A stretch of 64,000 nt of DNA, taken from the IMG/VR virus record IMGVR_UViG_3300050821_010655, positions 1 to 64,000 of that record; one strand, written 5' to 3'. Source of the DNA: a virus. A program made the position numbers and the translations under genes. Below, one piece after another: positions 10,610-44,368 of this stretch. The notes under the pieces are model-generated. The model was not told the DNA's origin and did not search any database. It saw only the letters and a program-made list of their open reading frames with translations. The stretch's first letter is position 1. Every line of letters begins with the position of its first letter.

Positions 10610-10648
10610 GCTTTTTGTGTTTTTTTTGTTTGTTGTTTAACTGAAGAT

Positions 10649-25472: not shown

Positions 25473-25480
25473 GTTTTGTT

Positions 25481-25681
25481 TTACTTGTAACCACCGGCCT
25501 CGTTTTCAAGGTCAGCGATAGTTTTTAGAATATCCTTCATCATGTCGGGATACTCCTTGAGCGCCTTTAGCATGTCATCCCTGTGTCCGAAACAGATTCT
25601 TTCCACGTTGCAGGGCTTTCTTGGAGCTGTCCTGCAAGCAGAAAGTCCAATCAGCATCAGGATGAATGCGGCTCGTTTCAT
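25481..25681 (-). CDS. small lipoprotein (possible spanin component)
   Basis: MKRAAFILMLIGLSA-C. Confidence 0.6.
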   Translation of the reverse strand: MKRAAFILMLIGLSACRTAPRKPCNVERICFGHRDDMLKALKEYPDMMKDILKTIADLENEAGGYK

Positions 25682-25694
25682 GTTGTCAGTTTAT

Positions 25695-25937
25695 TCAGGA
25701 GTTCCAACGGATGTGAGGCCCTCCAGCCAGCCCCAGTAGAATGTTAATCAGGATGATAACCGCCGCAATGGCGAGAATAACTCGCGCCACTTTAGCAAAC
25801 GGTTCAGGCAATGCGATGTAGTTTATCAGCCACCACAGCAGCCAGAACACCACTCCGATCACAATGAGGTAAATCAGTCCATGAATCACGGACTCCCCAC
25901 TTACGTTCATGTCGGCCAGTATTAACGCGAGGTTCAT
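25695..25937 (-). CDS. two-TM membrane protein (holin-like)
   Basis: LIYLIVIGVVFWLLWWLI..LPEPF.KV..VIL. Confidence 0.65.
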   Translation of the reverse strand: MNLALILADMNVSGESVIHGLIYLIVIGVVFWLLWWLINYIALPEPFAKVARVILAIAAVIILINILLGLAGGPHIRWNS

Positions 25938-25988
25938 TGTTTCCTTTTGGGTTGAGCAGCCTGCATAAAGTATGTAACTCGTGATCGG

Positions 25989-26369
25989 TCACACTGCGAT
26001 TGCCCCCTTGGGCGCGGTTCTCACCACTTTGGGAATATCCTCATCCTCTTTGGCGGCGACCGCCACGGTTGCGGTGTCGTCAGGACCAGGCACGGACCAA
26101 AATACCTCGTAACTGGTTTCGACAATATGATCGTGCCCCTTGCGGCGGACCACCACCTTGGCTTCCTTGTTGCCGGGCTCTCCTTCTCCGTGGAAAAAGA
26201 CAGCAAACTTTTTGTCCGTTCCCTTGGGGTCAACCGTGGCGACAGATTCACCGAACGGAACAATAGTAGCGTAGGTTCCGTCATCATTCTTCAATACCGG
26301 GTTGGCAAAGGTGAAATCCACCTTGCGCCTCTTGCCTGCAAGAACTGTTCCTAACTTTAATGTTTCCAT
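25989..26369 (-). CDS. hypothetical beta-rich protein
   Basis: ORF with AACGAAAG leader. Confidence 0.55.
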   Translation of the reverse strand: METLKLGTVLAGKRRKVDFTFANPVLKNDDGTYATIVPFGESVATVDPKGTDKKFAVFFHGEGEPGNKEAKVVVRRKGHDHIVETSYEVFWSVPGPDDTATVAVAAKEDEDIPKVVRTAPKGAIAV

Positions 26370-26409
26370 GTTTTTTCTTTCGTTTGTTGTTTAAGTTGAA
26401 CTGCAAATC

Positions 26410-26919
26410 TTAGGGCACGGGAGGTGGTTTCGGAGCCGCCAAATCTCCAGCCTTCTGTTGAACTTGATCTTTAATCTCACGCAACCCCACCCCAGCCAAT
26501 CCATAGGCTGCTCCGATTAATGGACCTGCGTTGTTCATGCCCGCCAATCCAAGCAGATAGTCCGCTCCCGCCCCCAATAGTGGCGCAAGAATCGGCAAAG
26601 CCCAGCCAGGTAACTTCGGTATCTCCTGCTTTGCTAGGGCGATTAATAACGGCACGGCAATTCCAACCAACATCATCCACGGGTTGCTCGCCACCGTAGG
26701 TTGCCCCGGCTTGAGCACAATCGGGGCATTAGTGCTCGCCTGTGGGGTGCTGGACACCACTGCGGCGGTATTGGTCGCCGGATGATTGGTGGGAGCCTCG
26801 GCATTCCAAATGATATAGGGATTGGTTGGGTTAATCTGGGCGGGCAGTCTGGATGGCAGAAGGCAGGCAAAGGCAACCAACACGGTTAAGGTGAAGTGCC
26901 AGATTGTTCTCATGGTCAT
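26410..26919 (-). CDS. membrane protein: signal peptide, P/T/N linker, holin-like TM domain
   Basis: N-terminal signal; three hydrophobic helices ending GLAGVGLREI. Confidence 0.6.
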   Translation of the reverse strand: MTMRTIWHFTLTVLVAFACLLPSRLPAQINPTNPYIIWNAEAPTNHPATNTAAVVSSTPQASTNAPIVLKPGQPTVASNPWMMLVGIAVPLLIALAKQEIPKLPGWALPILAPLLGAGADYLLGLAGMNNAGPLIGAAYGLAGVGLREIKDQVQQKAGDLAAPKPPPVP

Positions 26920-26944
26920 AATTTACAGTTTTTTTGTTATAAGG

Positions 26945-27259
26945 TCAAACACCGGTTGTTTTGGGAATAGGTTGAACTTTGGAAATTGGATTTAGACTAA
27001 TCTGTTCCTGAGTACCATAAAACGGAGGCGAGCTGTCTGAGGACGGAGGTAACGGATTGGCGGACCACCATTGAAAAAACCGGATGCCACCGTTAATCGC
27101 AAATGTGCCCGTAAGCATCTTGAAAAAGTTAGGACTTAAAAATGCCCAGTCCTTCGAGTCGATCAACCACGCGGTCAATGTGGATACGATAGCTGCGGCA
27201 CCGCCATGAATCAATGTCTCAATACCAGCCCTAAGCCATTTGCGCGTTGCGTTTGTCAT
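26945..27259 (-). CDS. two-TM holin-like protein
   Basis: KWL...IHGGAAAI; second helix then ANPLP. Confidence 0.55.
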   Translation of the reverse strand: MTNATRKWLRAGIETLIHGGAAAIVSTLTAWLIDSKDWAFLSPNFFKMLTGTFAINGGIRFFQWWSANPLPPSSDSSPPFYGTQEQISLNPISKVQPIPKTTGV

Positions 27260-27735
27260 GGCTTTTTGAGAATTAATCCGATGACTCCAATGGCAATAAT
27301 TGCCAGAGTAATCACCAATGCCCAGGTGGCGTTGACCCCCGCCGTTCGGCCTTTTGTCTCTGATAAAATTTTCTTCACCTCCTCTATTTTGTCGTTCAGA
27401 CCATCGAACTTGGCGACCGCTTCCGGACGCGGAACCATCTCCTTGTATTGAGCATCCATCTTCCGAGTCAGGTCATTGTGGCTGGCGTTGTAATTATTCT
27501 GAAAGCCCTCCTGTTTCAGAATCGCCTTGTCGGATGCCGCCAGAGCCGAAGCCGTAGCTTCTTTTTGAGCAGCCAAGGCGTTCTTGGTTTCCCTTTCCTG
27601 GCCGTCGAATCGCTCTTTGTAACGAGTGTCACGCTCGTTCATAAGCTCTTTGAAAGCGTAAAACTCAGCCGCAAGTTGATAAATGTCCGGGGATCGAAAC
27701 CTGCAATTCTCCACTCTCTGGTTGTCGTCGCTCAT
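27256..27735 (-). CDS. coiled-coil protein with C-terminal TM
   Basis: A..A..KAI.K.E coiled coil; C-terminal hydrophobic helix. Confidence 0.6.
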   Translation of the reverse strand: MSDDNQRVENCRFRSPDIYQLAAEFYAFKELMNERDTRYKERFDGQERETKNALAAQKEATASALAASDKAILKQEGFQNNYNASHNDLTRKMDAQYKEMVPRPEAVAKFDGLNDKIEEVKKILSETKGRTAGVNATWALVITLAIIAIGVIGLILKKP

Positions 27736-28067
27736 TGTTTGTATTTCCCATCGGCAGGCGGTCCGATGCGGTGACGCAGCCCTTCAATCTCTCTTTTCAA
27801 ATCAGTAATTTCATTGTCGCGAGCGGAGATCTCAGACCTGAATTCTGATCTCGTAATGAACTCGCGCATCGAGAATACAATCTCTGACAGAGTTTTCCCT
27901 TGGTCGTCCTGAATCTTCTCCATGTGATCCAGGTGCCGGGATGCACCCCATCCGATGATGATCATCAGGATGCCGAGCAGCCCGCTAAACGCCGATACAA
28001 CTATGGTGTTTAGGTTTATCTTCATGAATTTCTCTGGACTGTTGTGACTTAGGGTTTGATGTCCCAT
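27732..28067 (-). CDS. N-terminal TM + coiled-coil protein
   Basis: Hydrophobic helix then FITRSEF motif, typical of lysis-cluster genes. Confidence 0.55.
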   Translation of the reverse strand: MGHQTLSHNSPEKFMKINLNTIVVSAFSGLLGILMIIIGWGASRHLDHMEKIQDDQGKTLSEIVFSMREFITRSEFRSEISARDNEITDLKREIEGLRHRIGPPADGKYKQ

Positions 28068-28068
28068 A

Positions 28069-28779
28069 TCATTTTAGGACGTTAATCTGTAACCTAAAGT
28101 ACATCTTCGGATCAGGCGAGTTGGTAAGCCCAAGCGCATTTCTGAAGTTGGTAAATGGACCGTTAAGGTTGATGGCTGACTGGACCTGGACCAAATAAAC
28201 AAGGTTGCTGACCGGCACGGTGTAGCTTACCTCGGGACTGTAATCGCCTTCAAGACCATTATAGAGTTTGCTGGTCGCCGCGAAATAATACGTCGCCCCG
28301 GCCACAAGCGGTCCAATCCTCGCCGTGGTGTTGGTCGCCGGGCCGACCGTCACCGAGTTGGTATAGGCCAGACTGACGCCGCCCCAGTGGATTCCATAGG
28401 CAGTTATCAATGGATCGGTGTCCGCAATCCATGCGAGCGTGACCCCGGGGCCGGATGGAGGCACCAAAGACATATCCATAGCCCGCCTGGGTATCTTTGA
28501 AAAGCTGGGAGGTATCGGCGGAGATTTTGGTTTAGGCGCAGCACAACCTCCGGCAATTAGCATGGACGCCACAATCATGAATCGCGCAATGCGATGCTTG
28601 AGCGCATATTGAACCAACAGGGCTACTGAATAAATCCCAAGCCTCCGCTTCACTTTAAGCAGGTGGTCGTCGATTGTTTTTGGGCTGAGTTTAATTGCAA
28701 ATGCCGCTTCCTTGCGGTTCTTTCCTTCCGCAATGAGCTTGAGCACCTGTTGCTGGCGCGGGCTGAGAGTGCTTTTCAT
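28069..28779 (-). CDS. LuxR-type HTH fused to lipoprotein signal, FN3 domain and Verrucomicrobia-type C-terminal motif
   Basis: LSPRQQQVLKLIAEG..KE.A..I.LSPKTI..H; MLIAGG-C; VTLAW..Y...GATYYFAAT; QSAINLNGPFTN...MYFRL; ATGA-coupled start 28779. Confidence 0.8.
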   Translation of the reverse strand: MKSTLSPRQQQVLKLIAEGKNRKEAAFAIKLSPKTIDDHLLKVKRRLGIYSVALLVQYALKHRIARFMIVASMLIAGGCAAPKPKSPPIPPSFSKIPRRAMDMSLVPPSGPGVTLAWIADTDPLITAYGIHWGGVSLAYTNSVTVGPATNTTARIGPLVAGATYYFAATSKLYNGLEGDYSPEVSYTVPVSNLVYLVQVQSAINLNGPFTNFRNALGLTNSPDPKMYFRLQINVLK

Positions 28780-30530
28780 TTGATGTTCATCCCGCTCGTA
28801 CTCCCGCTGCTCCATTGCTGGCCCATGGCCACCTGGCCCCCACCCGCCGGAGGGTCCACGCCGTAAACGTCCCGGTAGCCTGCCGGTATGTTGGTGTAGC
28901 TGCTCGAATATGCGGGCGAGGCCGGGTCCACCGCAGGCCACGCCAGGAATCCGAACCATGCAGGCTTGCTGGCGAGATAGTAACTCGGCGGAAGGTCGGC
29001 GCTCGCAAATCCATCCGGCACAATACCGCTATTCGTGGCCGTGGCGCTGGTCCAGTTGTATGCCCGAGTCAAAGTACTGCGCGGAAGCAGGTCGGTTACG
29101 GCGGCGTTGCAACTCACGTCCCACCACCCTAGGTAATAGATCGCGTTGGCCTTGCAGCCGCCAGCTTGCCCGGCGTAATCCTCATAATTCGTGGTAATGC
29201 CGGTTGTGCCAAGGACGTTCCCAATGCTGCATTCGTAACGGTTGGTGACGTTCGCGGCGAAGGCGTATTGAAGCCCCTCCCCCGTTCCGGCGCTTGGATT
29301 GTAGCCAAGCGTACGGCTCCTGAACGCCACGTTGCGAGACGACCCACCCCAGGTGTTATCGAAGCCAATCGCTGGCGAATAGTTCCCTTCGTAGAGGTTC
29401 ATGTTCGGGTTGCCGCCATGCTGCAAGAGTCCCTGCAAAATCACTGTGAAGAATGGAACCTGATTCGTCATCACGTTGTAAGCCCAGACCCCTCCGTGCG
29501 AGCCGTTCGGGTAAAGCCCAGTGTTGACCGAACGGGAGATGTTGTTCTGCACGAGTATCCCGGCGCTGGCCCTGGTTCCGAATCCATAGGTATCAAGCCC
29601 GGCAGTTGCGTCACATGTGCAATGGTCAATCTGACAGCGCAAGGTCCAATGAGCATAAATCGCGGGAGTGTGCTGAGTCGTTCCCAAGTGGACGACGACG
29701 TTCGACATCCAGCAATCGACCGCGCAATTGAAATCCGCTCGGCCTTGGCTGAAAGTGCAGTTGGCAATCCAGGATTTCCGCACCGGCCCGCCCGAGTTGA
29801 ACCGCCATACCTGCGGCTGCTGGCTTGACCCATATTGAAGATTCACGTTCTGGTTGTTCCAGTTGGTCATGTAGAGCGGTTCGCGCAGCGTGATCGTGGT
29901 GCCGTTAATGGCCGTGATGTAGTTGACCTGAAACTGAGCGCGGTCCCTTCCGTCATTGGGGAAACTGACACTCGTGTATTCGTAGAGCGAGTAGGGTCCG
30001 TTGGATGAGTTGCCGTAAATGTCTGTGTCCACGTCGTCGTTTTGGTCCAGCACAATCATCTGGCCCACGGCGTATCCGTTCACACCTGCCACAGTGATTT
30101 GCGTCGTTCCCTGCGAGTAGCCCGCCGTCCAGTTCGTGTGATTGCCGGTGCTCGGCGTCACCGTTTCGTTCACGCCCCACCATTGCCAGTTGCCTATTTG
30201 CGCGTCAGGATAGTTCGCGCTCGTGAACGTCACCCCTGGAGCGCCGTTCAATCCAACGCCGTCGTTGAAGATGTTGATCGTCGTGCCGCCCAAATTGTAA
30301 GTGCCGTTCGTGGCGAGTTGCACGTAGCTGTTGCTCGGACAGGTGCTCAGAGCGGTGTTGATGTTGCCACCAGAGGCCAGCAGGATCGGCGTCATGCTGG
30401 ATAACGGAGGGATGCCGCCAGGGACGCCGACTTGATTGGTCCAGCCTGTTCCTGCGGGCTTCTGGACCTGCTGTAAGGGGTCCGAGGCGAGCGCGGAAAG
30501 AGCAAAGAAGAATGGAAGTAGGTAACGCAT
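28776..30530 (-). CDS. signal-peptide protein with right-handed beta-helix (pectin-lyase-like, possible depolymerase/adhesin)
   Basis: MRYLLPFFFALSALA-S; stacked WIANCTF / CWMSNVVV / CQIDHCT / LVQNNI / NLYEGNY repeats. Confidence 0.7.
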   Translation of the reverse strand: MRYLLPFFFALSALASDPLQQVQKPAGTGWTNQVGVPGGIPPLSSMTPILLASGGNINTALSTCPSNSYVQLATNGTYNLGGTTINIFNDGVGLNGAPGVTFTSANYPDAQIGNWQWWGVNETVTPSTGNHTNWTAGYSQGTTQITVAGVNGYAVGQMIVLDQNDDVDTDIYGNSSNGPYSLYEYTSVSFPNDGRDRAQFQVNYITAINGTTITLREPLYMTNWNNQNVNLQYGSSQQPQVWRFNSGGPVRKSWIANCTFSQGRADFNCAVDCWMSNVVVHLGTTQHTPAIYAHWTLRCQIDHCTCDATAGLDTYGFGTRASAGILVQNNISRSVNTGLYPNGSHGGVWAYNVMTNQVPFFTVILQGLLQHGGNPNMNLYEGNYSPAIGFDNTWGGSSRNVAFRSRTLGYNPSAGTGEGLQYAFAANVTNRYECSIGNVLGTTGITTNYEDYAGQAGGCKANAIYYLGWWDVSCNAAVTDLLPRSTLTRAYNWTSATATNSGIVPDGFASADLPPSYYLASKPAWFGFLAWPAVDPASPAYSSSYTNIPAGYRDVYGVDPPAGGGQVAMGQQWSSGSTSGMNIK

Positions 30531-32719
30531 TAATGAAATGTAGCTACACTCATCGAACCGCTCGTGGCGTTGCGTGGTGTGCAAGAGGACGATGCGGGTC
30601 CGGTAGCACGCTGGAATGAATCACAGGTGGTCAGTGCGCTTGGCTGGACAGTCTCCCCCATGCTCTCTCCTGATGGGACGCTTACCAAAAGTCCGTTACC
30701 GGAATCCACCATCAGCCCGAACACAAGTTCATCAGTGAAGCTTGTTGCCGCTGTATTACCGCTGTTGAACGCCGTGGTGCTGCTCATGTTCGCCGTGTGG
30801 GTTTTGTCGAACGGCTGGTAGAGTGCGAACCCGGCATATTCGTGAATGGCATAATGGAGGTCACTGCTCGTTGCCCCACTGATACTCACGGTAACGGTGT
30901 TGGCTCCCGCCACGCTGTTGCTGGCATAATAAATCCACGAATCATCTGCTGCGAGGCCGGTGTCGGTGGGTGCCTGCGCCACTGTATAGGTATTGTGACT
31001 GTCGGTAACTGTGACCGTTCGACCATGCACACTACCTCCGGCAACTACGAGCAGGCTTGCGGCCCGGTTCGTGATTGGAAACTGAACAGACAAACTCGAT
31101 ACCGCAGACCCCGCCGCGATGTTCGTGCTTTGAACAAAGAACTTTGGAGACGCTTGAGCCGTCCCGCCGCTAGGAAGAAATCCGACCATGTAGAACGACA
31201 TATCCCCACGAGGGGCAGTCGGAAGTCCCTGGTAATAGTTCGCTATAATGATTGGGGACGTGTCAGGAGTAATGCAGTGCGACCATGAATTATTCTGGTC
31301 TGGGTTGGAGGGTCCGTCCCTGGATTCGTTTGTCCAGACCTCGCAGTCAAAGCGCATGTTCCCGCCGAGTATGTTGGAAGTCGTCATAAACACTTCCTGC
31401 GCTTGGTTCAGAACAAATTCACCCGCAACCGAAGGCGTGAACCAGTGAGGCAACGCAAGCCCGTTCGTGTATTGGCCATTATCGTTGATGACCTGCTGCA
31501 CGCCGTAATCGAATGGATAAAGTGAAGCTCCAACAATGTCATAAGCCATGATGGTCATGTCGCCGTTTTGTCCTACCTGATTCGTAACGTAAAGGTTCGC
31601 GCTGGCTACCAAGTTGCTGGCATAAACACAACAGGTGTTCGCACCACCAGACTGGATATGAACGACTACAGGATGACCAGCGGCAAGCGTGTAAGTGTTC
31701 CCTTGAGTATCAGTAGCATTTGTGGGATAACAAAGTGAACCGCCCGCCTGACACCCGAGCACAAGCAGATTGCCCACAGTCGGGAATTGAGAAACGCAGA
31801 TTCGTCCTGCTGGCACTAAGGGTCCAGGCCAAGACTGATGTGAGATTCCAGCAACATACATTCCCGCTGGTCGTCCTACGCCTTGGGCCGTGGCACTGGC
31901 TTTGAGAGCAATCGTCGCTGCGATGTATCGGGTAGCGTTGACGGTGCAGGTCATCTGAGGATTGATTGCCGCTGTCGCGCTATCGATTCCCCACTGCAAA
32001 GCATGGCCATCGTTCACGTCAACCGTCGTCAACGCCCATGTAATGTTGGCTTGGCTACCGGCAGTCCAAAACGATTGAATGGTCGAGCCGGTTCCGTATC
32101 TAACACCCCACTCTAGAATCAAGTCACCCGTCTGAGTTGGCGTGATACTTCCGGCGCTAATAGTTCCGCTGGCCGCTGACGTGAACGTGTTCGTCACATC
32201 CATTGGACTATAAGGGATGATATCGTTTGCTTCCAACGCAACAGCTACAATATTCGACATGATGACCGTGCCGTTCGTGACGTAGATAAAATGAGTTCCC
32301 GCAGTGATGTTCGTTGCCGCATACCACCAGATAGCCTGGTTCCCGGTCGCATCATATCCATAAGTTTGCTGGCGGTAAACATTTCCCACATCATCACCTA
32401 TCCCGGCCCACACAGCAGGAGAAGTGGTCCGAGCTGATATGCCCATGAGCGCGGTATTTCCAGTCTGAGTGGGACTTGGAAAGTTGAACCGGACAATCCC
32501 ATTGGCCATCAAGTTTGTCCCTTGACCACTCACAGAATTGGAAAGGGAAGAAAAGCTAGTGCGTTGGAGGATGCTTGGAACAACTGCGCCGCTTGCAGGG
32601 ACGGCCATGTAAGGCACGTTTCCGAGCGTTTGCATGTTGGGCTGCGCTGAGCCTCCCACGGTCTGAGCCTTTGCCGTAAATCCAAAGACCAGAGCCGCAA
32701 TAAAAATCAACATCCTCAT
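30530..32719 (-). CDS. signal-peptide adhesin-like protein with three beta-sandwich modules
   Basis: MRMLIFIAALVFGFTAKA-Q; three repeats of GN.L...D..GN(T/V)Y...YA.N...P(M/F)D...G(D/E). Confidence 0.7.
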   Translation of the reverse strand: MRMLIFIAALVFGFTAKAQTVGGSAQPNMQTLGNVPYMAVPASGAVVPSILQRTSFSSLSNSVSGQGTNLMANGIVRFNFPSPTQTGNTALMGISARTTSPAVWAGIGDDVGNVYRQQTYGYDATGNQAIWWYAATNITAGTHFIYVTNGTVIMSNIVAVALEANDIIPYSPMDVTNTFTSAASGTISAGSITPTQTGDLILEWGVRYGTGSTIQSFWTAGSQANITWALTTVDVNDGHALQWGIDSATAAINPQMTCTVNATRYIAATIALKASATAQGVGRPAGMYVAGISHQSWPGPLVPAGRICVSQFPTVGNLLVLGCQAGGSLCYPTNATDTQGNTYTLAAGHPVVVHIQSGGANTCCVYASNLVASANLYVTNQVGQNGDMTIMAYDIVGASLYPFDYGVQQVINDNGQYTNGLALPHWFTPSVAGEFVLNQAQEVFMTTSNILGGNMRFDCEVWTNESRDGPSNPDQNNSWSHCITPDTSPIIIANYYQGLPTAPRGDMSFYMVGFLPSGGTAQASPKFFVQSTNIAAGSAVSSLSVQFPITNRAASLLVVAGGSVHGRTVTVTDSHNTYTVAQAPTDTGLAADDSWIYYASNSVAGANTVTVSISGATSSDLHYAIHEYAGFALYQPFDKTHTANMSSTTAFNSGNTAATSFTDELVFGLMVDSGNGLLVSVPSGESMGETVQPSALTTCDSFQRATGPASSSCTPRNATSGSMSVATFH

Positions 32720-35700
32720 GGATAAGTCAAAGTCTGCCACATTCCATTGGTCGTCGGAATCGAGATTGAGGCGTTCAACAGCCACTCAATATTCGTCGAG
32801 GTCCAGTAGGGCGAGCCGCCCCAGCTAGCAACTTGGATGTAGCAGTCGTCACCTGGATTCGGAGTGCCCGCGAGAGTGAATCCTGCCGTCATGTGCCAGT
32901 TCGTGCTGCAAGTCCCCGTCGTAATCGGTAGATTATTTGTGAACGTCACGGCAGTCCCGAGAGCCGTTCCGGCTCGCGCTCCCGCGAATGACCATACGTT
33001 TGTAACCTTTGTGCTGAAATTAGTTCCCGAGGCCACGCCGACGGCCCCGGTTATCGATCCGCCTGTCGCGTAGTTCGGAGGCATCTTGAACTCAAGAATT
33101 GCGTTGTTCGTTCCGCTCGTGGACATCTGCCAGCCGAGGAATGTAAGCCCGGCGCTTTGGAGAAGGTTGAAGGCGGTTCCGGGAGTGTTGGTGGTCCACG
33201 TCATTGGGAGCGTATCTCCGGGACGGATGGCGACTGCTTTCCAAGTGATAACGGCCACGCCTCCTGTCAAAGCCCCAGAGTTTAGGTTAGTTAAATTTCC
33301 TCCGTTGAACAAAGGCGCACGAGTATCATTGTTGGTCAACACACCTCCAGGTAACGCTCCCTGAGGGATAGTTCCGATAAGATTAGCAGCTTGTGGAGGC
33401 CAAATCTGATTGGTGGATGCTGTGCCTGTAATAGGATTGGTTTCAACTAGCCAGAGTCCGTAGCTATTCGAGTTCCAAAATATCATACCACCATTCCCGA
33501 GATTGGCGTAGCTTGCCGTCACTGGGAATGTATTGGAAGCCAGAACACCAGATGGAGGCGTGTTCGTGAGATTGACCCCATTAACTCCTGAACCGATAGT
33601 GCCACCAGCAGCCAGAGCGTTTGCGGTCGTGGCAGTGGTTGCTGTGGTTGCCGTAGTCGCCAAGTCGGCAACTCCTGCGGTCGGCCAGATTTTATTGGTG
33701 TATCCCAATCCAGTTAGTGCATTCGTGCCTATCAAATAGAGCGCGTATCCATTGGAGTTCCAGAAGATCACGCTGGCTGTCGAAAGATTCGCAAAGCTCG
33801 CCGTAATCGGCAGTGTATTGCTCGCCAGGATGTATCCGCTAGAAGCGTTGACTAAACCATTGGTAACGGTCACAGTGTTAGCGGTAGTCAGGTTCTCCAC
33901 GATTAATCCATCCGCCACCTCCAAGGCAAAATCTCCGTTGGCGAATGCTTGTACATTCGTTGAGACAACGGCATTAGTTAAAGTCCCGCCCCAAATGTTG
34001 GTTCCTCCTGGAACCATGAGTTGCCCGCCGAATAGAGTGGCAGTGTCTCCCGCCCCCGCTAAATTATTCGTGAACGTGTACGCGAATCCCGCAGGAATCA
34101 TGCCGGCAATGATGTTCGTGTAATCCGCCGCAAATCCGAGAGTGGACGATGTGACTCCGACGCTATTGGTCACCGCGCCCGGTATCCACAGGTTAACGTC
34201 CGATTGACCGGATACATTCGATACGTGCAGGTCAACGTTGGCCTGGACGATGATCGGGGCTCCGTAGAAATTGGTGTACCATTGGCTTGATATAAAGTTG
34301 GTCTGAATCAGAAGTCCGTTCGTGAACCCCGTGGCGAAGTCGGTCAAGGCGTAGTTGATGCTGCCGTCAGCGTTATAGTTCGATGCAACGGAACCGCCGC
34401 TGGCAAAAGTAACGTAAACTTTTGTCAAATTCGACAAACCGGCACCGTAGTTAGTCGAGAGTAATTGCAGGCCAGGTGGTAGTGCTGCGGTGGGAACCGT
34501 ATTGCTTGCCAGGTTCGCGGCGCTGATTCGTACATTCCACAACGCGGACCCGTCGGAGGCCCCGATGCTAGCGCCCGCGAGCAGATTGTTCGCCCAAGCT
34601 ATGTTCGTCGCGGTCTCGCTCCAGGCGTTGGTGCTTGCACCAATCCAAAACGTCGAGAAAGTGACGGCAGACGCCGGACATACAATGGAGGACACACCGT
34701 TGGCTGTAATCGGAAAGCGCAACACACAATTCGTTGCCGCACCGTTTGTTACTATCAGCGTCACCTGCGCCGGGTAGGCCGCATTGATTGGCCCGTAATA
34801 ATTCGTCACCTGCATGTCGTTGGTGGTGGAATACGTCTGGAGCGAGTTCGTGACCACCAGGTAATTAGTCGGACCATTGAACGGCTGCGCGATCAGGTAG
34901 AAGGCATTTGTCGTGAAGTGAACCGAGTCCGCCGCCGTCGCATAAACGTCCATATTCGTGGCTACGCTCAGCCCGTTCCCGCCAAAATCGGTAAGTGTAC
35001 CATCGTGCCATAGCAGATAAGAACCGTCCGCGTTGGTGAAATAAATTCCAGTCGAGGTATCCCAGATAATTAGGTTCGTAAATGTCGGGCCGTAGTAAGT
35101 ACTGCCCCCGGGAGTGACCCACGTTTGATCGCCGCGCAGGAAGGTGCTGGAAGTGGCGGAACCGCTGCCGAGGCGGGCGGTGGGAATCGTGTTGCTGGCG
35201 ATATTCGCACCACTGATCCTGACATTCCAAAGCGCCGAACCGTCTGAGGCCCCGATCACCGCCCCCGCCGCTAAATTGCTGGCCCAGGCGATATTGGTCT
35301 GCGTCTCGCTCCAGGCGTTGGTGCTTGCGCCGAGCCAGAAGGTGCAGAAGGTGACCGAGGAAGCCGGACATAGTATGCTGGTCAAATTGTTGCCTGTGAG
35401 AGGAAACCTCAACGTGCAATTCGTCGCCGCGCCGTTCGTTATCCATAACGTCACCTGGCCCGGAATGGCCGCGCTGCCACCCACGTAGTTGGTGATCTGC
35501 ATGTCATTGGTCGTCGTATAGGTCTGCAACTCGTTGGTCACCGCCAACAGGTTCGTCGGCCCCGCCCAGGTCTGCGCGAGAGTGTATTGCTCGTTGGTGA
35601 CGTAGCCAACCGCTGAGGCCACCGAGGATGCCGTCTGGATGGCGTTGGTGAGGATGTAGTTCGTGACGGTTCCAGCATAAGGGGCATACGTCGCCACTCC

Positions 35701-38700
35701 GCCCTGATTCAACGTAGCTGTGATGGTGCGATCCGCATTGGTGATTGCCGAAGCCACTGCGCTCCCAAGGAAATACACCCCAGGCACGAACAGTGCCGGT
35801 GTCTGACCAGACAGGTTTGTGATCGTGCTCGATAAATAATTTGTGGAAATTTGATAGTCCTGTAGCGGTATATTTGTGGTGTGATTCCAATCGCCCCAGG
35901 TGTTCCAGAAATAACCGCCGCTCAGTCCCGGCACCTTGTCCGCGCTCGTCAGATTCTTATTCGCATCGTAGGCCGCTACCGTGCTAGCGCTGGCGAGTTG
36001 GTTGGTGAGTCCATTAGTGGTGACGCCGAAGTTGAAGGAGAGCAGAGAAAACACATCCAGGTTCGTGGCCGTGGTCAACCCGGTCCCGCCCACCATCGTC
36101 CAAGTGCCGTCATGCCACAGAGCATAAGATCCGTCCGCGTTGGTGAAGTAGATCCCCGAGGCGGTGTCCCACACTATCAGGTTGGTAAACAGTGGACCGT
36201 AGTAGGTCGGAAACAGCGTAATGACGTGGTTGTTTGTGGTCGCTCCGGTTTGGATGATGCCCTGAATCGCATTGGCCACAATCTGCCCGAGCGCGTTCGT
36301 GACCGTCGTGGACAGGTAGTTCGTTGAAATCTGCCAATCCTGCAAGGGGATATTGGTGAGATGATTCCAATCGCCCCAGGTGTTCCATAGTGCCGCCCCG
36401 CTGCCGTTCGACAGGTTTGTCAATGCCGTCGTTCCGAACTGCGCCTTCCAGAGAGAGGCCAGTGATTGTCCATCCGAGTTCGTTAGCCCAGCAGCGAGGC
36501 CGTTAAACTGTCCCCCGAACAGGGTTGTCACGTTGTTGCTGAATATGGCTTGCCCTCCGTTCGTGAGTGTGCCGGTAATCAAGCCCCAGCCTTGAACCCA
36601 AAGATTGCTTACAATGGTCAGGTTCGTGACGTTGTAGGTCGTCAATATACCGCCGCACAGGATCGCGGAAGGCGAGTTCGCCGCCGTCACATTGGTTTCC
36701 GTGAGGCAGCCGTTCGCTATCGTCACAACGAGTCCGTCTGTATTCGTCTCGCCCCAGCCGCCCGGATATTCCCAAGACCAGTTCGTGTTCTGAGTGCTGC
36801 CTCGGGCAATGATGGAGTTTGTGAATGGAACTGCCGACCCGCTGGCCGTCGAAGAAATTACACCTCCAGCCGCAGTGATTGTGGTGCCGTCAACTTTAAC
36901 CGCTCCGAATGCGCTGGACGTGGCCAGTGGCAATAATCCCGGAGATACGGTTCCGGTGGTGAGCGCGGAGGCGTTGAGGTTTGTCCCCTGTGACAGGTCA
37001 AAACTCCAAGCCCAATTCGTGTTTGAATCCTCGGTCATAAACGCCCCGGCCATCGGGTTATTCGGCCCACCCCAGGTTTTCACCCCGGAGTCCACCAGCG
37101 CATCGTAGTAGCCATGCCCATAGAAAGTGATGGAAGCATTATTGATGGCCGACGCCTGCTGAATGGTGGTGGCCCCACGGTTAGAACCCACCTTGATGAT
37201 TGTCCCAGCTACTTCCACCGCGCAACTTGGGGCGTTCGCAGCAGTGATGCCTTGGCACGTAAGCGACCCGTTCGTGGCGATGATTTCCCCACCCGTGACG
37301 TAGGTGTGACCCAGCTTCGTGTTGATCCCGCGCATGGTCTGTCCTAGAGCGCCAGCGTCGAGGTTCGTATTGTAGGCCGACACCAAGGAGCAATTCTCAA
37401 CCCGCAGGATTGAGTTTGTGTTTGCGGAAGCAGAGAACCCGGTGGGCAGGATCGTGATGCAGTCAAATGAACTGAACATTTTGCAGTTGCGGAATGTCGC
37501 GTCAAACGCACCCTGCAATCCCGCCGCTCCCGCCCGGTAAATAATGTCGGAGTAGTTGGTGAAGAACACCCCGTCGAACAAGATGTTTGCTGTAGTCAGC
37601 ACCTGCGGACAGTTCAGGTAAACCGGAAACGAGAAACCAGTATTTAATGTCGGCTGACCCCAAATCTCCCCACCCAGCATTGTAAAGTTTCCATCAATAC
37701 TCAGGAGCGTCTGGTGGGTGACATCGCCTACGTAATTTGTGAAGTACAAACGCGCTCCGTAAGCGAGGAAAATGTCATTGGACATTGTGATAAAACCATT
37801 GGTGTTGATGTAGGTCGAGGCGTCGTAAATCTCACCCGGCGCAAATCGAGTCACCTGCGCCGTTCCGGGCACCCTCAGCGCCACCCACCGTGCCCAGGTC
37901 TTGATTGGGTGCTGGGAATCCGCCCCGTTCCAGGCATCGTTTCCGTTCGTCGCATCGAACCAGAGCGATGGAGATGACGATAGGAAAAAGTTGATATTGG
38001 TGCCATAGAGATTGGTCAGGCCGGAGCCATCGCCGGTGAAACCTGGATGGCCCGAACCGGCATAATTAACAAAACCTGCATTCCATCCCTGTAGCAAACT
38101 TGGAGACGGACCCAAGACAAGTGTGGGAGTTACGCCAACCGATCCAACACTCAGGCTGATGGCATCTGTAGCAATGCCTGTATTCGTAATCGTAACAGGA
38201 CTGTCCGCTAAGGAGTTTGTCAAACGCGGATAGTTCAAATAAGTGTTTGTCGCACCTCCGTTTGCCATCTGCACAAATTGAGATTGATAAACAGAGTTGC
38301 TTTGGCTGGCTATGTTGGCCGACAAAATGTTGACCACGTTGGTATCGGTCTGGGCGCTGACAATATTGTTGGGCGCACTAAAAATCACCGTTGTATTTGA
38401 ACCCGCAACCAGCGGTACTCCGCCCCCTCCACCAGTGCTATTGATGGTCACTAGGTTTCCATTAGTGACCGCCACCACGTTGGTTCCCGCCGCCACGCCC
38501 ACTCCAGTTGTTCCTACTCGGGCATACCGACTATCCGTCACTGCCGCCGCCCACGCCACGCTGCCTGCCGGGAAGGTCGCCGCGCTGGAAGCCACCATAA
38601 TATCAGCCGCATTCACCACACCGGAAACCGTGTTGGTGACAAAAATCTTGAACTGCTCCTGCGCCCCGCCAAAGGGTGAGGCGCGGACGGTGATCAGGTA

Positions 38701-38961
38701 AAGGTAAGGTTGGGCGTTTGAGAAATAGTAAATGCCGTTGGAGTCGGTCAATCCCTGTACGGTTGCGCCCAGAACTACCGAAGGCGATTGCGCGTTGGGC
38801 ACGCTCATAGCCTGCACCCAAATCACGCGATTGGTGTAGTAGGGGGCGGCTTGTAAGCGAGAGTCGGTTAAATTCACTGCCACCGTCGTTGTCGTTTGGG
38901 CGGTCGCCCCAAGACAGACTAACAAGACAAACAGGATTAAAAGTCTAATTAAAGTTTTCAT
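32716..38961 (-). CDS. ~2080-aa TN-rich tail-fibre-like protein with signal peptide, beta-helix region and internal duplications
   Basis: MKTLIRLLILFVLLVCLGATA-Q; fibre motifs LPLATSSAFGAVKVDGTTI and ARLGSGSATSSTFLRGDQTW. Confidence 0.75.
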   Translation of the reverse strand: MKTLIRLLILFVLLVCLGATAQTTTTVAVNLTDSRLQAAPYYTNRVIWVQAMSVPNAQSPSVVLGATVQGLTDSNGIYYFSNAQPYLYLITVRASPFGGAQEQFKIFVTNTVSGVVNAADIMVASSAATFPAGSVAWAAAVTDSRYARVGTTGVGVAAGTNVVAVTNGNLVTINSTGGGGGVPLVAGSNTTVIFSAPNNIVSAQTDTNVVNILSANIASQSNSVYQSQFVQMANGGATNTYLNYPRLTNSLADSPVTITNTGIATDAISLSVGSVGVTPTLVLGPSPSLLQGWNAGFVNYAGSGHPGFTGDGSGLTNLYGTNINFFLSSSPSLWFDATNGNDAWNGADSQHPIKTWARWVALRVPGTAQVTRFAPGEIYDASTYINTNGFITMSNDIFLAYGARLYFTNYVGDVTHQTLLSIDGNFTMLGGEIWGQPTLNTGFSFPVYLNCPQVLTTANILFDGVFFTNYSDIIYRAGAAGLQGAFDATFRNCKMFSSFDCITILPTGFSASANTNSILRVENCSLVSAYNTNLDAGALGQTMRGINTKLGHTYVTGGEIIATNGSLTCQGITAANAPSCAVEVAGTIIKVGSNRGATTIQQASAINNASITFYGHGYYDALVDSGVKTWGGPNNPMAGAFMTEDSNTNWAWSFDLSQGTNLNASALTTGTVSPGLLPLATSSAFGAVKVDGTTITAAGGVISSTASGSAVPFTNSIIARGSTQNTNWSWEYPGGWGETNTDGLVVTIANGCLTETNVTAANSPSAILCGGILTTYNVTNLTIVSNLWVQGWGLITGTLTNGGQAIFSNNVTTLFGGQFNGLAAGLTNSDGQSLASLWKAQFGTTALTNLSNGSGAALWNTWGDWNHLTNIPLQDWQISTNYLSTTVTNALGQIVANAIQGIIQTGATTNNHVITLFPTYYGPLFTNLIVWDTASGIYFTNADGSYALWHDGTWTMVGGTGLTTATNLDVFSLLSFNFGVTTNGLTNQLASASTVAAYDANKNLTSADKVPGLSGGYFWNTWGDWNHTTNIPLQDYQISTNYLSSTITNLSGQTPALFVPGVYFLGSAVASAITNADRTITATLNQGGVATYAPYAGTVTNYILTNAIQTASSVASAVGYVTNEQYTLAQTWAGPTNLLAVTNELQTYTTTNDMQITNYVGGSAAIPGQVTLWITNGAATNCTLRFPLTGNNLTSILCPASSVTFCTFWLGASTNAWSETQTNIAWASNLAAGAVIGASDGSALWNVRISGANIASNTIPTARLGSGSATSSTFLRGDQTWVTPGGSTYYGPTFTNLIIWDTSTGIYFTNADGSYLLWHDGTLTDFGGNGLSVATNMDVYATAADSVHFTTNAFYLIAQPFNGPTNYLVVTNSLQTYSTTNDMQVTNYYGPINAAYPAQVTLIVTNGAATNCVLRFPITANGVSSIVCPASAVTFSTFWIGASTNAWSETATNIAWANNLLAGASIGASDGSALWNVRISAANLASNTVPTAALPPGLQLLSTNYGAGLSNLTKVYVTFASGGSVASNYNADGSINYALTDFATGFTNGLLIQTNFISSQWYTNFYGAPIIVQANVDLHVSNVSGQSDVNLWIPGAVTNSVGVTSSTLGFAADYTNIIAGMIPAGFAYTFTNNLAGAGDTATLFGGQLMVPGGTNIWGGTLTNAVVSTNVQAFANGDFALEVADGLIVENLTTANTVTVTNGLVNASSGYILASNTLPITASFANLSTASVIFWNSNGYALYLIGTNALTGLGYTNKIWPTAGVADLATTATTATTATTANALAAGGTIGSGVNGVNLTNTPPSGVLASNTFPVTASYANLGNGGMIFWNSNSYGLWLVETNPITGTASTNQIWPPQAANLIGTIPQGALPGGVLTNNDTRAPLFNGGNLTNLNSGALTGGVAVITWKAVAIRPGDTLPMTWTTNTPGTAFNLLQSAGLTFLGWQMSTSGTNNAILEFKMPPNYATGGSITGAVGVASGTNFSTKVTNVWSFAGARAGTALGTAVTFTNNLPITTGTCSTNWHMTAGFTLAGTPNPGDDCYIQVASWGGSPYWTSTNIEWLLNASISIPTTNGMWQTLTYP
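33400..36390 (-). repeat. interleaved internal duplications (order A B A C B C D D) within the giant gene
   Basis: A: WNTWGDWNH at ~36361 and ~35881; B: TYYGP.FTNL at ~36200 and ~35095; C: ~135 aa at ~35180-35590 and ~34490-34900; D: LASNT.P...IWP at ~33690-33840 and ~33400-33550. Confidence 0.85.
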
Positions 38962-39298
38962 TTTCAATCGTGGGTTCCCACTTCAGCCATTTAGGTGGAT
39001 GGTCGGGACACTGTTCGGTCGAGAGCATAATCTTATTCACGAGCCATCCCGAAGTCCGGCACCCGCATAAACTGCATCTTTTGTCCGACGGTCTAAACTT
39101 GTCGCACTTTTCACAAACAGACCACCGCTCTGCCTGAACTTCTTTGGGGGCTAAAATAGGTCTGTCGCAAACCGCTTGTGCCACCGTTCGCCCAAACGCC
39201 ATCGTCACGCTCGCCGCCTGACGCGCCAAGGACGGCAGTGCCGGTTCAGGTCGAACAGGTCCACGGGACGGGAATGGGTTTATAATATTTGTCATCAA
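38945..39298 (-). CDS. small Cys-rich protein (R..C..C...RC..CGC...CP...KW)
   Basis: ERWSVCEKC...RCSLCGC...EQCP..KW. Confidence 0.7.
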   Translation of the reverse strand: MMTNIINPFPSRGPVRPEPALPSLARQAASVTMAFGRTVAQAVCDRPILAPKEVQAERWSVCEKCDKFRPSDKRCSLCGCRTSGWLVNKIMLSTEQCPDHPPKWLKWEPTIENENFN

Positions 39299-40122
39299 AT
39301 TGTTTGGTAGACGGCTAATACCTCAGCCGGGGTAATGGAATTGATTTGAATGTCAGGGTGAACCACGGTTTTCATACCGGCAGGTACCCATTGCGGGTAA
39401 AGTTCGTTCCACAACGCCAAAGTAGGAATGCCCAAGGCATGTGCTAAATGTGAAATACCCGTCTCACTACCAATCAAGGCTCGACAGGCTTGCAGGGCGC
39501 TGGCAACCACGCTCAGGCTGGCGTTGCTCAACACCTTGGCGCTTCCGACAGGGAGTGCTTTGTAGAGGCGCGAGGCGGATAAGAAATCAACTCGCCCCTC
39601 GATCAACAACAACTTCACGCTTTTAACCAGTTCCTTGCACACCTCCAGCCACCTTTCAACAAACCAGTTCTTGCCAAGTTCACCCGTGGCATGGATCGCC
39701 ACATAACCGTTATACTCGGGGTTGGGCGTCACCCTGAAACTTGGGGTGTAATTCACGGTAGGCACGCTCAAGGAACTCAGGTGTTGCAACCGCTGGAGTC
39801 CGGGTGGAACGGCGCTGGCTAGATCAAGGACGCTGTTGACGGTGCTTGCCGCGCCATTCACGTTGGAAGTCTGGAAACCGCAGTTGATCCCAAGATCGTA
39901 GCCTGAAGAATCGGAGTAGATGATGGGCGATTCGCTGGTTCTCATCCGTCCATTCCACGCGCAGTCGCTCACCAGATTTGCGTCTTTCAAGAACTGGCTG
40001 TATTCAAAATCAACGTAACTGTGAATCACTGCCGTTGGGTAGAGCACGCGCAGGGCTTGGAGCATGGGCGATGCGATGATCAGGTCGCCCAAGGTCTGGT
40101 TTTGGCAAAAGGCGATTTTCAT
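39295..40122 (-). CDS. glycosyltransferase family 9 (heptosyltransferase-like)
   Basis: LGDLIIASP, AIH...KNW, IGSETGISHLAHALGIPTLAL. Confidence 0.85.
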   Translation of the reverse strand: MKIAFCQNQTLGDLIIASPMLQALRVLYPTAVIHSYVDFEYSQFLKDANLVSDCAWNGRMRTSESPIIYSDSSGYDLGINCGFQTSNVNGAASTVNSVLDLASAVPPGLQRLQHLSSLSVPTVNYTPSFRVTPNPEYNGYVAIHATGELGKNWFVERWLEVCKELVKSVKLLLIEGRVDFLSASRLYKALPVGSAKVLSNASLSVVASALQACRALIGSETGISHLAHALGIPTLALWNELYPQWVPAGMKTVVHPDIQINSITPAEVLAVYQTI

Positions 40123-43100
40123 GGGCAGTTCACCTTAATTCCTTGCGCCAAATAATCTGCCTCAAATCGACCATGAGCGCATTCGCACAAGTACGATCGG
40201 ATATATCGGCCCCAGACCGTATCAAATGCCAACGGGATAGCAGAATTAAAGGTATCTGGCGAAGCGTATCCTGGTCCAAAAGGTGGAATTAAAACGTTCC
40301 CGTTCACCGGACTCAACGTGTCCAACGCTGCCAACGAAAGATAACCGATATAAATTCCAGTCGGCAATACCGGTGCGCCTGCCGGAACTGCCAGAATATT
40401 CTCAGCGTAAGGTTCACGAAAATAGTAACGCGTACCCCCGCCAGAGGTATCATCCGGGCAGGTATCGGTCAGGCAGCTTCCGTCATCTTCCCCCCAGGTG
40501 CAAACCGTTGGACCTTCCCCGCTGGTCGAATATGTGACGCACGGGATGTGGGGCTTCATCCAGAATGGGTCTTGGATATGTTGAATGATTGCCGACTGTT
40601 GCATCGCCCCAAACCTGCCATCCAAGGTCAGAGTCGCCGGGACCGCCACAAAGGCGTTGGGCCACTGCTCACCGCTGGGATTGGTGATCGCGTCGTAACC
40701 GTTGCTGGTGATCGCCATGACTTGGGGATTGCACGGATCAAACGCAAGACACTCCTGAGTGGCGGTAAAGGTTGAAACCGCCTGCGGCATTCCGTGGGTG
40801 ACTTGCTTGGCGCGAATCAGAGTCGAAGATGCAGGCGCGGCGTCAGCGCATGATCCGGTGGCGGCGTACTGGTCCACCACTCGCTGGCGCTCCTGATAAT
40901 CCCTAAGATTAAAAAGCCAAACAACGTAAGCAAACTGCCCCTTGCTTTGATCGTCATCCCACCAGTAATCCGGTGCGCCGTTGACCGCGACAAAACCCGG
41001 ACCTGAGAAAGTCCCAGTGGGCGAGTGGTTGATTACGAAATGGCTGCTATCAATGGTCGAATCAACTGTGAACGTGGCGTTGACATCGATGCCGGAAACC
41101 CCACTGATCACCACCGAATCGCCCTTGGCTAACTGGGTGGCGTTGCCGGTAGTGATTTCGGTTTTGGTCACCCCGCCAATCACCGTGCTGTAGGCGTTGA
41201 TGACCGACACTCGCCCGCAAATCCCCGGCGCAGACGGAAATCTGAGTTTGCCCATGATGCCGTTTCCGCCAAAACTATTGCAGTCCAGAGGATAGACATA
41301 ACCCGGCGCAAAGTCTTTCAGAACCAAGGTGTAGTTGGTGCTGGAGTTTTTGGTTGCCTGATAAAGCCCGGTCGGCACCACGGATGAGCCACAGACCCAA
41401 ACCAAATCCGCCGTGTTGATGGCGGTCGCGCTGTTAATATCGACACTGGCGATCCCGCTGCTGCTGGCTTGAATACAACGCACGGTCGTCTCATCCAAGT
41501 CGTACCGATCCGCCCCGCAAGGACGATCAAAGTTGACTGATGGACGCGGCACTTTTATTTCCGCCCACTCCTGACCGATTAACACGCCGTTCCAAAAGTA
41601 TTTCCACTGCCCATAAGGCAAACTCCCCGGCGCTCCGATACAGGGAATCGGGATAGCCAGTCCGCTATAGCCCGTTCCAGGTCCAAACGGATAACCGTCA
41701 GCACAAGGAGGCGTCCCGCAACTCACACCGGTAAAGGCATTGTAGTTCTCAGTCCATTCGGTGGCGGTCTTGGGGATTCCCGCATCGGTCGGGTCGGTGG
41801 CGTTGGTCTCGCCCGCAAACGCCCCGTAGGCGTAGCGGTAAGAACCCACCGTGCTGGAATCTCCACAGCACGCCCGCCATGTCACATGGTTAAAATCAAA
41901 GTAACCTCTGTCCAGACCGTCAAAAGGAACCGGCGCACCCTTTATACTCCCATCATAAAGCAATGAGTTGCCGTCCACCCAAGGAACGGTGTTGGTGGGG
42001 TAATCCGCCCAGCATTCGCCAATCGCAGGAGCCACACCACCCATCGGCTCGCTGTAGTGGACGATTGGGGCGACATTGCAATGCTCGTCCGCCCGCCACG
42101 GATATTGCAGGTCGTCTGAGAGATTCCACTTCTTTCTCAACGTTATCCAATCTGCATTTACGTCAGCCGAAGTATAGGGGACGGTTAGACTGCCGGTAAC
42201 AGTGATGGTTACAGTTGAACTTCCAAAACTGCCCATGCCAATCCCGTTGGCTCCATGCGTGTAGGCAGTGTCACTGCTGTAAGTGATGTACTCGTGCCAC
42301 TGAAGGACACCACCGCCGTCGTATCGGTTGTAACTAAAGTTTCCGGTGGAAGTATCCACTGTGGCGATCTTATAAATGTTTCCCGTGCCCGCATAATAGG
42401 ATGTAAAAGTCAGGGATGATCCTGATTTAACAATCGTGATGTCATAGGCGCAAGGCACGTTGACGCACGCCACTTCCAGCACAATCCGGTAAAAAAGTGA
42501 CAACGATTGATTCTTGTTGACCAGCATTCCGGCAGGAGGCGGACAATAGGTGTCGCCGCAGGTCACACTGGGGCAACTCACATCGCTGAATCCATTAAAT
42601 AGCAAGTCATGCGCTTCCTGCGTCCAAATGTCCGCACCTGAACCGCCGCCGCTGCATGCGCGGGTCATTACTCCGCTATAACGGTCGATTGAAGCCGAAC
42701 GTGAGACACTGCCGCTGCCGGGATTGCTCCCACCCGCAGCAACAAAAGAACAGGTAACGGTTTCAGTTAGATAATGGTTGGTGTCGGGCGTTGTCTGCTC
42801 AAACTCAATATCCAACCCATTGCACTCAGATGGCAGTGATCCACCACCGGCACAAGTGGCCGATCCAAACCCAACCTGCTTGCCAAGGTCGGTTAACCCC
42901 GATGGGTCGTGACTGCGGTAAGAAAATTTTCCGTGCCACGACTTCCACACCTGAATATTTTTGAAGCCGATCTTCCGGCACAGCGACATATCCACGTTTT
43001 TGCCGGATGAAATAAAACAGTTAAACCCCACCGTCTTGTGCGTGGTGTCCACCGAATGGCAGGCAATCCAATCTGATGGGTTGTCCGCCAAATTGCCCGT

Positions 43101-43739: not shown

Positions 43740-43822
43740 GTTGACCTCCTAAATGTTGTGGGGTATAAGAAAGAAGCGGCCCGACCGTCTGATAAACAAA
43801 GTCGAGCCGCTAAAACTGAACT

Positions 43823-44353: not shown

Positions 44354-44368
44354 TCCGATAGGCATAGG

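Follow-up and report, generated by a model that had tools for sequence, protein, structure and literature searches.

The 64-kb window analysed here (64,000 nucleotides) is the first part of a single 76,696-bp virus record of soil metagenome origin (IMG/VR record IMGVR_UViG_3300050821_010655; ~64% complete by the CheckV estimate), and its minus strand carries a tailed-phage late region in which three consecutive, translationally coupled genes in the tail-fibre position each encode a protein that begins with a Sec-type signal peptide. Their products are a giant fibre-like protein of 2081 amino acids (aa), a 729-aa protein with tandem beta-sandwich domains and a 584-aa right-handed beta-helix protein. 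The usual assumption is that tail fibres and tailspikes stay in the cytoplasm. A first-pass annotation had noticed the three signals and offered two explanations: loading of exported fibres onto particles at lysis, or the use of fibre-derived proteins as exported factors of the cell. The comparative evidence suggests that the signals are genuine, selected features and that the export route is a trait of the whole module. We tentatively favour the view, which we put forward as possible rather than probable, that the trio is a Sec-exported, glycan-targeting accessory module that would act in or on the envelope, either as a non-virion component or in released form.

The three genes are organized without any gaps (all features of the window given here lie on the minus strand). 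The gene for the giant (38961..32716) is joined to that for the 729-aa protein (32719..30530) by an ATGA, comprising the TGA stop of the former and the start of the latter, and the 729-aa gene to the 584-aa gene (30530..28776) by a TAATG, in which the TAA stop overlaps the next start. A further ATGA couples the 584-aa gene to a LuxR-type gene starting at 28779; all these junctions were read directly. Upstream, the successive overlaps between the genes for a 1206-aa protein, a GT9-like glycosyltransferase, a 117-aa protein and the giant are 4, 4 and 17 nt. The coupling reported by the first-pass annotation thus holds and extends further on both sides: the region from the 1206-aa gene to the LuxR-type gene is one unbroken coupled string, with junction overlaps of 1 to 17 nt and zero intergenic space. 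The N-termini read MKTLIRLLILFVLLVCLGATA-QTTT in the giant, MRMLIFIAALVFGFTAKA-QTVGG in the 729-aa protein and MRYLLPFFFALSALA-SDPLQ in the 584-aa protein, with the hyphen at the predicted cleavage point. The giant has K2/R6, the core LLILFVLLV and ATA-Q (aa 1-21, codons 38961-38899), the 729-aa protein R2, LIFIAALVF and AKA-Q (aa 1-18), and the 584-aa protein R2, LLPFFFAL and ALA-S (aa 1-15). All three therefore show the attributes of secretory precursors of the Sec/signal peptidase I type, namely a positive n-region, an uncharged hydrophobic core of 7-15 residues and AxA at positions -3/-1. We looked for these elements with a rule-based scan (positive n-region, uncharged hydrophobic core, AxA-type site) over the 115 open reading frames (ORFs) of the 76.7-kb record. 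It gave strong scores for all three genes, bearing out the classic signal peptides described earlier, and no signal in the genes from 39295 to 60054 (portal, protease, capsid, neck and tail); the remaining matches were only a handful of small membrane proteins or lipoproteins. Chance can be excluded as the source of the three signals, because they are conserved in homologues and the same signal-bearing gene order recurs in a second phage. Hence, the signals appear to be genuine selected features and not start-codon artefacts, with export as the straightforward reading.

The giant comprises the signal, an N-terminal beta-rich region, long Asn/Thr/Ser/Gly-rich repeats and a conserved C-terminal domain, and gave no matches to Pfam, PHROG or NCBIfam. 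Two homologues of its size class, P0133 and P0134 (1562 and 1637 aa), likewise start with signal peptides, and by this token as well as by its own signal the giant is not a signal-less cytoplasmic fibre. The C-terminal domain of ~210 aa (32719..33348) is the best-conserved part of the protein, with 49-50% identity to the C-termini of P0133 and P0134, and a repeat of the form YYGPTFTNL.IWDTSTGIYFTN.DGS.LLWHDGT is common to all three proteins. The link to tail fibres comes from a 65-aa segment (35068..35262), in which the motif IPTARLGSG....TFLRGDQTW is followed by the YYGPTFTNL.IWDT.. repeat: in tblastn searches it matches annotated cyanophage tail fibres, such as the long tail fiber distal subunit of S-SRM01 (E 2e-6), in line with the fibre motifs first recognized by eye. 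Both this motif and VKVDGTTI are present in the giant only and nowhere else in the 76.7-kb record. Together, these features indicate that the giant is built partly from tail-fibre modules. Its first 700 aa matched tailspike-like clusters at 0.83 in the ESM Atlas, which is a weak lead only.

In the 729-aa protein the signal is followed by a ~30-aa linker, two modelled beta-sandwich domains that begin from a [TI]-P-x-x-V-Q motif, and a third, poorly modelled part. The AlphaFold2 (AF2) model has a predicted local distance difference test score (pLDDT) of 62, with the domains at 45-300 and 300-520 reaching 70-90. It found no Foldseek match at E<=1e-3, and its structural matches in VIA-align were generic only (beta-sandwich, carbohydrate-binding modules (CBMs), collagen-binding and glycosidase accessory domains; Z 6.7 or less). 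A word-indexed search recovered 8 relatives, and a HMMER search with the family profile 6103 representatives at E<=1e-3, each standing for a cluster of 50% identity; of these, 1047 reach E<=1e-30. The conserved core of this family starts at a sharp motif, typically T-P-T-L-V-Q-H, and what stands before it varies: among the best 157 sequences 28 are signal-less and start with M-A-[TV]-P-T-L-V-Q, 46 bear a hydrophobic signal ending in ..A-[QA] immediately before the motif, and the rest have additional N-terminal domains; the first two forms are both common, and the signal is all that distinguishes them. One family member is a cellular 812-aa protein (L050, G005:C80, 1249-3687, minus strand), in which one beta-sandwich domain of the 729 family is fused to a Big-type domain and, at the N-terminus, to a domain resembling a glycosidase; its gene adjoins one that by eye resembles UDP-glucose dehydrogenase and lies on the same Acidoferrum contig as the nearest cellular relative of the 584-aa protein, ~11 kb from that beta-helix gene.

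The 584-aa protein was modelled by AF2 as a right-handed beta-helix (pLDDT 86, predicted template modelling score (pTM) 0.90), in agreement with its initial description as a tailspike-like fold. Foldseek returned 83 PDB matches at E<=1e-3, with phage depolymerases and tailspikes on top (best matches 7w1c, 4y9v, 9k4a, 4ru4 and 4ru5; E about 1e-10, template modelling (TM) scores 0.34-0.46), followed by enzymes of glycoside hydrolase family GH110, epimerases and lyases. Phage depolymerases and tailspikes of the 7w1c, 4y9v, 4ru4 and 4ru5 types bind the particle through N-terminal domains and are not known to carry a signal peptide. The 584-aa protein shares with such depolymerases (Klebsiella K1 lyase, 7w1c; AP22 gp54, 4y9v; LKA1 gp49, 4ru4; phi297 gp61, 4ru5) the fold and the position at the end of a tail module, but the sequence identity is only 11-13%, and in contrast to them it has a signal peptide and lacks an adaptor domain. 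Its 15-aa signal leads straight into the family start DPL...G.GW...VGVPGGIP, and alignments revealed no extra domain between the two that could bind particles or serve as an adaptor. Its homologues show a similar placement: a word-indexed search recovered 188 of them, and almost all of the ~120 listed have a signal directly before one conserved motif, of the form ..AQ.WSGI.DPSRA.DWS.AGVPGGIP for the more distant homologues and ADPLP..R.P.G.GW.G.VGVPGGIP for the closer ones.

In the species-representative genomes scanned, the closest cellular relatives of the 584-aa protein come from metagenome-assembled genomes (MAGs) of Candidatus Acidoferrum (62% identity) and a member of the Verrucomicrobiota (59%), with many weaker relatives in Verrucomicrobiae, and a signal precedes the motif in about 22 of the 27 cellular beta-helix loci. 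The Acidoferrum relative (L021) has the domain order signal, beta-helix, PKD, Big and LamG, and is encoded in a locus with the gene order YdjC, GT2, AsnB-like, Wzy_C, the beta-helix gene, GT9, GT4, UDP-galactopyranose mutase (Glf), GT2 and GT2; none of the other genes of the phage is found nearby. These affinities suggest that the beta-helix family consists of exported enzymes of polysaccharide loci, of which the phage copy is a bare signal plus catalytic core. A comparable cellular protein is WceF of Pantoea stewartii, an exported tailspike-like glycanase in an exopolysaccharide cluster that is proposed to trim the polymer of its own cell (PMC7949094). Both WceF and the 584-aa protein combine a right-handed beta-helix with an export signal, and the closest cellular relative of the latter shares the polysaccharide-cluster context. 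However, WceF is the product of a cellular gene and has a twin-arginine translocation (Tat) signal, whereas the 584-aa protein has a Sec-type signal and its gene closes the tail operon of a phage; the likeness drawn here is one of fold and context.

The module is not confined to this phage. A scan of IMG/VR with a profile of the beta-helix family recovered ten viral contigs, and in these loci ORFs were called by a simple longest-ORF rule. The most similar arrangement is found in G001 (locus L004), a contig of 70,521 bp with a CheckV completeness of 100%, which has the order giant, 729-like gene, beta-helix gene, with signals throughout. Here four consecutive signal genes specify a 2448-aa giant with the N-terminus MKSKLAIIFLLLACIPAFA-QKKDD, a 729-family protein of 750 aa, a beta-helix protein of at least 827 aa and a 238-aa signal-bearing protein. 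The 729-like and beta-helix genes show 27% identity to those of the present phage and the only other similarity is one marginal 47-residue methyltransferase match; the two phages are thus otherwise unrelated. Upstream, G001 has a cluster of GT1-, GT2- and RXYLT1-like transferases with two FkbM methyltransferases (L011, 12.8-20 kb). Another locus, L001, encodes two adjacent signal-bearing giants, one of which is made up of two beta-helices fused to a 729-type C-terminal part. In L018 the context is a siphovirus tail module with a tape measure (phrog_3336), minor tail proteins and a phrog_469 tail protein, and five consecutive signal or lipoprotein ORFs of 82, 159, 286, 231 and 508 aa (7401-11368), the last being a 729-family member, are lodged with the tape measure on one side and the distal tail genes on the other. 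The ORFs that flank this block both match phrog_384. The block looks like an insertion in an otherwise complete tail module and behaves as cargo rather than as an essential tail part.

Signal-less versions also occur. The 131,760-bp contig G002 (L002; 91% complete) encodes a 2347-aa fibre with several FLR.DGTW motifs, a 208-aa protein, two 729-family members and a 1346-aa beta-helix protein, and further downstream come a small membrane protein and a protein that, judged by eye, may be lysozyme-like; none of its four module proteins has a signal. L019 and L020 similarly have signal-less 729-family genes in structural regions. The first-pass annotation would have been undermined if homologues lacked hydrophobic N-termini, and on this point the outcome is divided: many homologues have a signal and many do not, with the state uniform within each of the five multi-gene loci (the present phage, G001, L001, L018 and G002). 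As judged from these gene contexts, export or cytoplasmic residence appears to be a trait of the whole module, seen in at least three unrelated soil phages. Cysteine content did not separate signal-bearing from signal-less relatives. The idea that such signals are a general trait of Verrucomicrobia phages was rejected, as the large tail proteins of Akkermansia phage Chantilly lack them.

The late region of the window has a Mu-like portal gene (58423-60054), a protease gene (54612-56222) and a major head protein gene (53596-54576), along with genes for an adaptor and a Neck1/tail-completion protein and small tube- and chaperone-like genes. A DHH phosphoesterase gene (57470-58426; phrog_4771, E 7e-56) lies between the portal and protease genes. 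By composition, a 500-aa Ala/Gly/Leu-rich product identifies the tape-measure-like gene (46982-48484), which is directly followed by a gene for a 277-aa Thr-rich protein with Ig-like domains (46145-46978; Pfam Ig_3/I-set, Hoc-like PHROG matches); several unassigned tail genes are also present. The 1206-aa Cys/Gly-rich protein without a signal peptide (40119-43739), noted for its composition, is encoded after the tape-measure-like gene and three small tail genes, by the last gene ahead of GT9 and the module. It may be a tail-tip or central-fibre protein; searches of Pfam, PHROG and NCBIfam placed it in no family and the ESM Atlas gave nothing useful. Its annotated ATG may lie too far upstream, and the unusual composition of an overlapping 209-aa ORF (43736-44365) makes it doubtful that this ORF is a gene. 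Between the capsid proteins of this phage and of phage Chantilly the identity is 26%, beyond which nothing close was found among GenBank phages; these gave no match to the DNA of the region, to the whole giant or to the 584-aa protein. Single-protein scans of IMG/VR with the 584-aa, GT9 and 1206-aa proteins likewise returned no close relatives. Among sequencing runs, a single DNA run of a soil metagenome, probably that of the source sample, was listed, and none of RNA.

Between the 1206-aa gene and the giant lie two further coupled genes. One encodes a 275-aa heptosyltransferase-like glycosyltransferase of the GT9 family (39295-40122; Pfam PF01075, 6e-10), and the other a 117-aa Cys-rich (CxxC...CxxC) protein (38945-39298; phrog_13558, 4e-10), whose gene overlaps the start of the giant by 17 nt. 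The GT9 protein matches TIGR02193 at 1.7e-19, below the cut-off of that model, has the C-terminal half of lipopolysaccharide (LPS) heptosyltransferase I as its best NCBIfam match and is weakly similar to the WaaC and WaaF structures; pairwise comparison with the GT9 genes beside the cellular or G002 relatives of the module gave no significant similarity. The locus resembles those of Aah/TibC and AIDA-I/TibA, where the gene for a GT9-fold enzyme stands beside that for a large Sec-exported, Ser/Thr-rich adhesin, but the trio is without an autotransporter domain and the phage GT9 protein falls outside the Aah/TibC family. Adhesin heptosylation of that type was accordingly rejected (TIGR04414 E 0.0099, 14.9 bits against a cut-off of 200). 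N-glycosylation was also rejected, as N-x-S/T sequons are not enriched in the trio when compared with shuffled sequences (31 vs 42 expected in the giant, 9 vs 9.6 in the 729-aa protein and 12 vs 8.7 in the 584-aa protein). Glycosyltransferase genes stand close upstream of a fibre-type module in three phages, namely the present one, G001 and G002 (L015, about 90-92 kb), the last being GT9-like by its N-terminal motif only; their targets could be fibres or host glycan. At the other end of the string, the product of the LuxR-type gene (28069-28779; Pfam GerE, 3.6e-10; ATGA coupling to the 584-aa gene) consists of a helix-turn-helix (HTH) domain (aa 1-62), a single transmembrane, hydrophobic stretch (FMIVASMLIAGGCAAP), a linker rich in Pro and, at the C-terminus, a beta-rich outer domain. 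Encoded where the exported module ends, this membrane-spanning regulator might act as a sensor of the periplasm. The small ORFs beyond it (25116-28067) have transmembrane or lipoprotein-type N-termini (e.g. ..LLLAGC-G and ..LIGLSAC) and could constitute a holin/spanin-type lysis cassette; Pfam searches found no endolysin among them.

In the scenario that we tentatively prefer, the giant would be an adhesin assembled from tail-fibre building blocks, the 729-aa protein a lectin- or CBM-like tandem beta-sandwich protein and the 584-aa protein an enzyme of tailspike/depolymerase fold. Because the trio is coupled to the tail genes, with which it would be transcribed and translated, it would be made late, and before the cell lyses the signals would carry it over the inner membrane to the periplasm. 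There it would most likely act outside virions: it may bind and cut the nascent capsule or exopolysaccharide of the host itself, as proposed for the relatives from polysaccharide loci, or it may be freed at lysis as a soluble enzyme and adhesin. With the glycan layer stripped or blocked, progeny would escape more easily and be re-adsorbed less to the dying cell and its debris; exclusion of other phages is a further possible gain. We favour such a free module because the enzyme closely resembles an exported polysaccharide-locus enzyme and has no particle adaptor, because the signal-bearing block of L018 looks like an insertion into a complete tail module, because free proteins would tolerate frequent switching of signals on and off more readily than would parts that dock in the cytoplasm, and because Sec export of phage late proteins has precedent (PMC6116005). 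The missing adaptor, the 62% identical cellular relative and the L018 insertion thus lend weight to the earlier suggestion that fibre-derived proteins act as exported factors, with the export step itself predicted from the N-termini. The precedent consists of secreted and signal-arrest-release (SAR) endolysins, fOg44 Lys44 among others, which are late proteins placed outside the cytoplasm via a signal before lysis (PMC6116005). These are, however, small peptidoglycan hydrolases of the lysis cassette, whereas here the signals are on three large proteins that take the place of fibres and are predicted to bind or cut glycans.

Several observations weigh against a free module. Its genes stand where tail fibres or tailspikes are classically encoded and are coupled to those of the tail, the only tail-fibre motif of the record is in the giant, the syntenic signal-less module of G002 resembles ordinary virion fibres and spikes, and no other clear receptor-binding protein was recognized in a record that is ~64% complete and in which the 1206-aa protein matches no family. 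Further, Pfam and NCBIfam searches gave no match to type IX secretion system (T9SS), PEP-CTERM or autotransporter domains in any of the three proteins, and with neither a signal nor a partner for translocation across the outer membrane recognized, the 2081-aa adhesin would be expected to stay periplasmic until lysis; such retention suits a post-lysis function at least as well as one on the living cell. The same facts of position, coupling and motif speak for the other explanation given in the first-pass annotation, under which the trio would be real fibres and spikes that are exported, cleaved, folded in the oxidizing periplasm and docked onto fibreless particles once holin and endolysin have mixed the compartments, or shortly after release. 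The signal-less counterpart in G002 is placed where virion fibres belong, before the small membrane protein and the putative lysozyme-like gene, and the joint switching of module members is as expected if complex formation needs one compartment. The beta-helix has conserved cysteines (C273, C304, C459 and C474) that could form disulfides in the periplasm, but cysteine counts do not tell signal-bearing and signal-less relatives apart. That no other receptor-binding protein was recognized is also in keeping with this explanation, with the caveats that the 1206-aa tail protein is a candidate for one and that a third of the genome may be missing. Against it stand the lack of an adaptor domain between signal and core in the beta-helix and in many 729-family members, the cellular exported enzymes of polysaccharide loci as the closest beta-helix relatives, the L018 block inserted in a complete tail module and the rapid dilution that docking after lysis would face; full-text literature searches also yielded no published precedent for signal-bearing tail-fibre modules, which is not proof of absence. 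We therefore regard such loading as rather unlikely, and consider equally doubtful its generalization to a lineage-independent assembly route, in which a host-recognition module of fibre, accessory beta-sandwich protein and depolymerase would be Sec-exported, mature in the periplasm and be joined at or after lysis to particles assembled in the cytoplasm, with the whole module being switched between the exported and cytoplasmic routes.

Two other explanations are more improbable still. The trio could be surface factors that benefit the host, of the lysogenic-conversion type, supplying the carrier cell with adhesins and an enzyme that remodels glycans, with expression from the late operon being incidental or leaky. 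Its adhesin-like composition, its signals and the membrane-spanning LuxR-type regulator coupled to it would suit this, but no tyrosine integrase, serine recombinase or resolvase was found in the (incomplete) record, the phage encodes its own primase-helicase, clamp-like gene and homing endonuclease, and Pfam and NCBIfam gave no outer-membrane sorting signal. Lambda Lom and Bor are signal-bearing envelope proteins encoded among late and tail genes. They are, however, small outer-membrane proteins or lipoproteins with their own expression signals, whereas the trio consists of large fibre- or enzyme-type proteins whose genes overlap their neighbours; as the overlaps leave no intergenic space from the 1206-aa gene to the LuxR-type gene, and no room for a promoter of its own, an autonomous moron of the lambda lom/bor type was rejected. 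A further parallel is provided by PblA and PblB from phage SM1 of Streptococcus mitis, which are tail-fibre-type proteins and yet also reach the cell surface, via holin/lysin-dependent release and rebinding; they differ from the trio in that the review mentions no export signal for them and their host is Gram-positive (PMC7600539). On balance, a benefit to the host is improbable. It is just as hard to sustain that the N-termini are not used for export and serve instead as uncleaved membrane tethers or assembly handles, or are bypassed by internal starts giving cytoplasmic isoforms that become virion parts. The signal-less relatives do indicate that the cores can function without export. Nevertheless, all three proteins have textbook AxA sites and short positive n-regions, hundreds of cellular relatives have their signals at the same place, overlap with each preceding stop fixes the starts, and no in-frame start with a ribosome-binding context is evident by eye just past the signals.

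These considerations bear on how large genes at the end of phage tail modules are interpreted. Annotation pipelines and host-range prediction treat large beta-helix or fibre genes that follow tail genes as virion receptor-binding proteins, and the 729 family, with thousands of members, shows both exported and cytoplasmic forms. Should the exported forms prove to be free factors that act on the envelope, many of the 'tail fibre' annotations of environmental phages would be wrong, and phages of polysaccharide-rich soil bacteria (Verrucomicrobiota, Acidobacteriota) would, while infecting, remodel the glycan of their hosts from within the periplasm. Should they instead end up on virions, they would represent a new assembly pathway.

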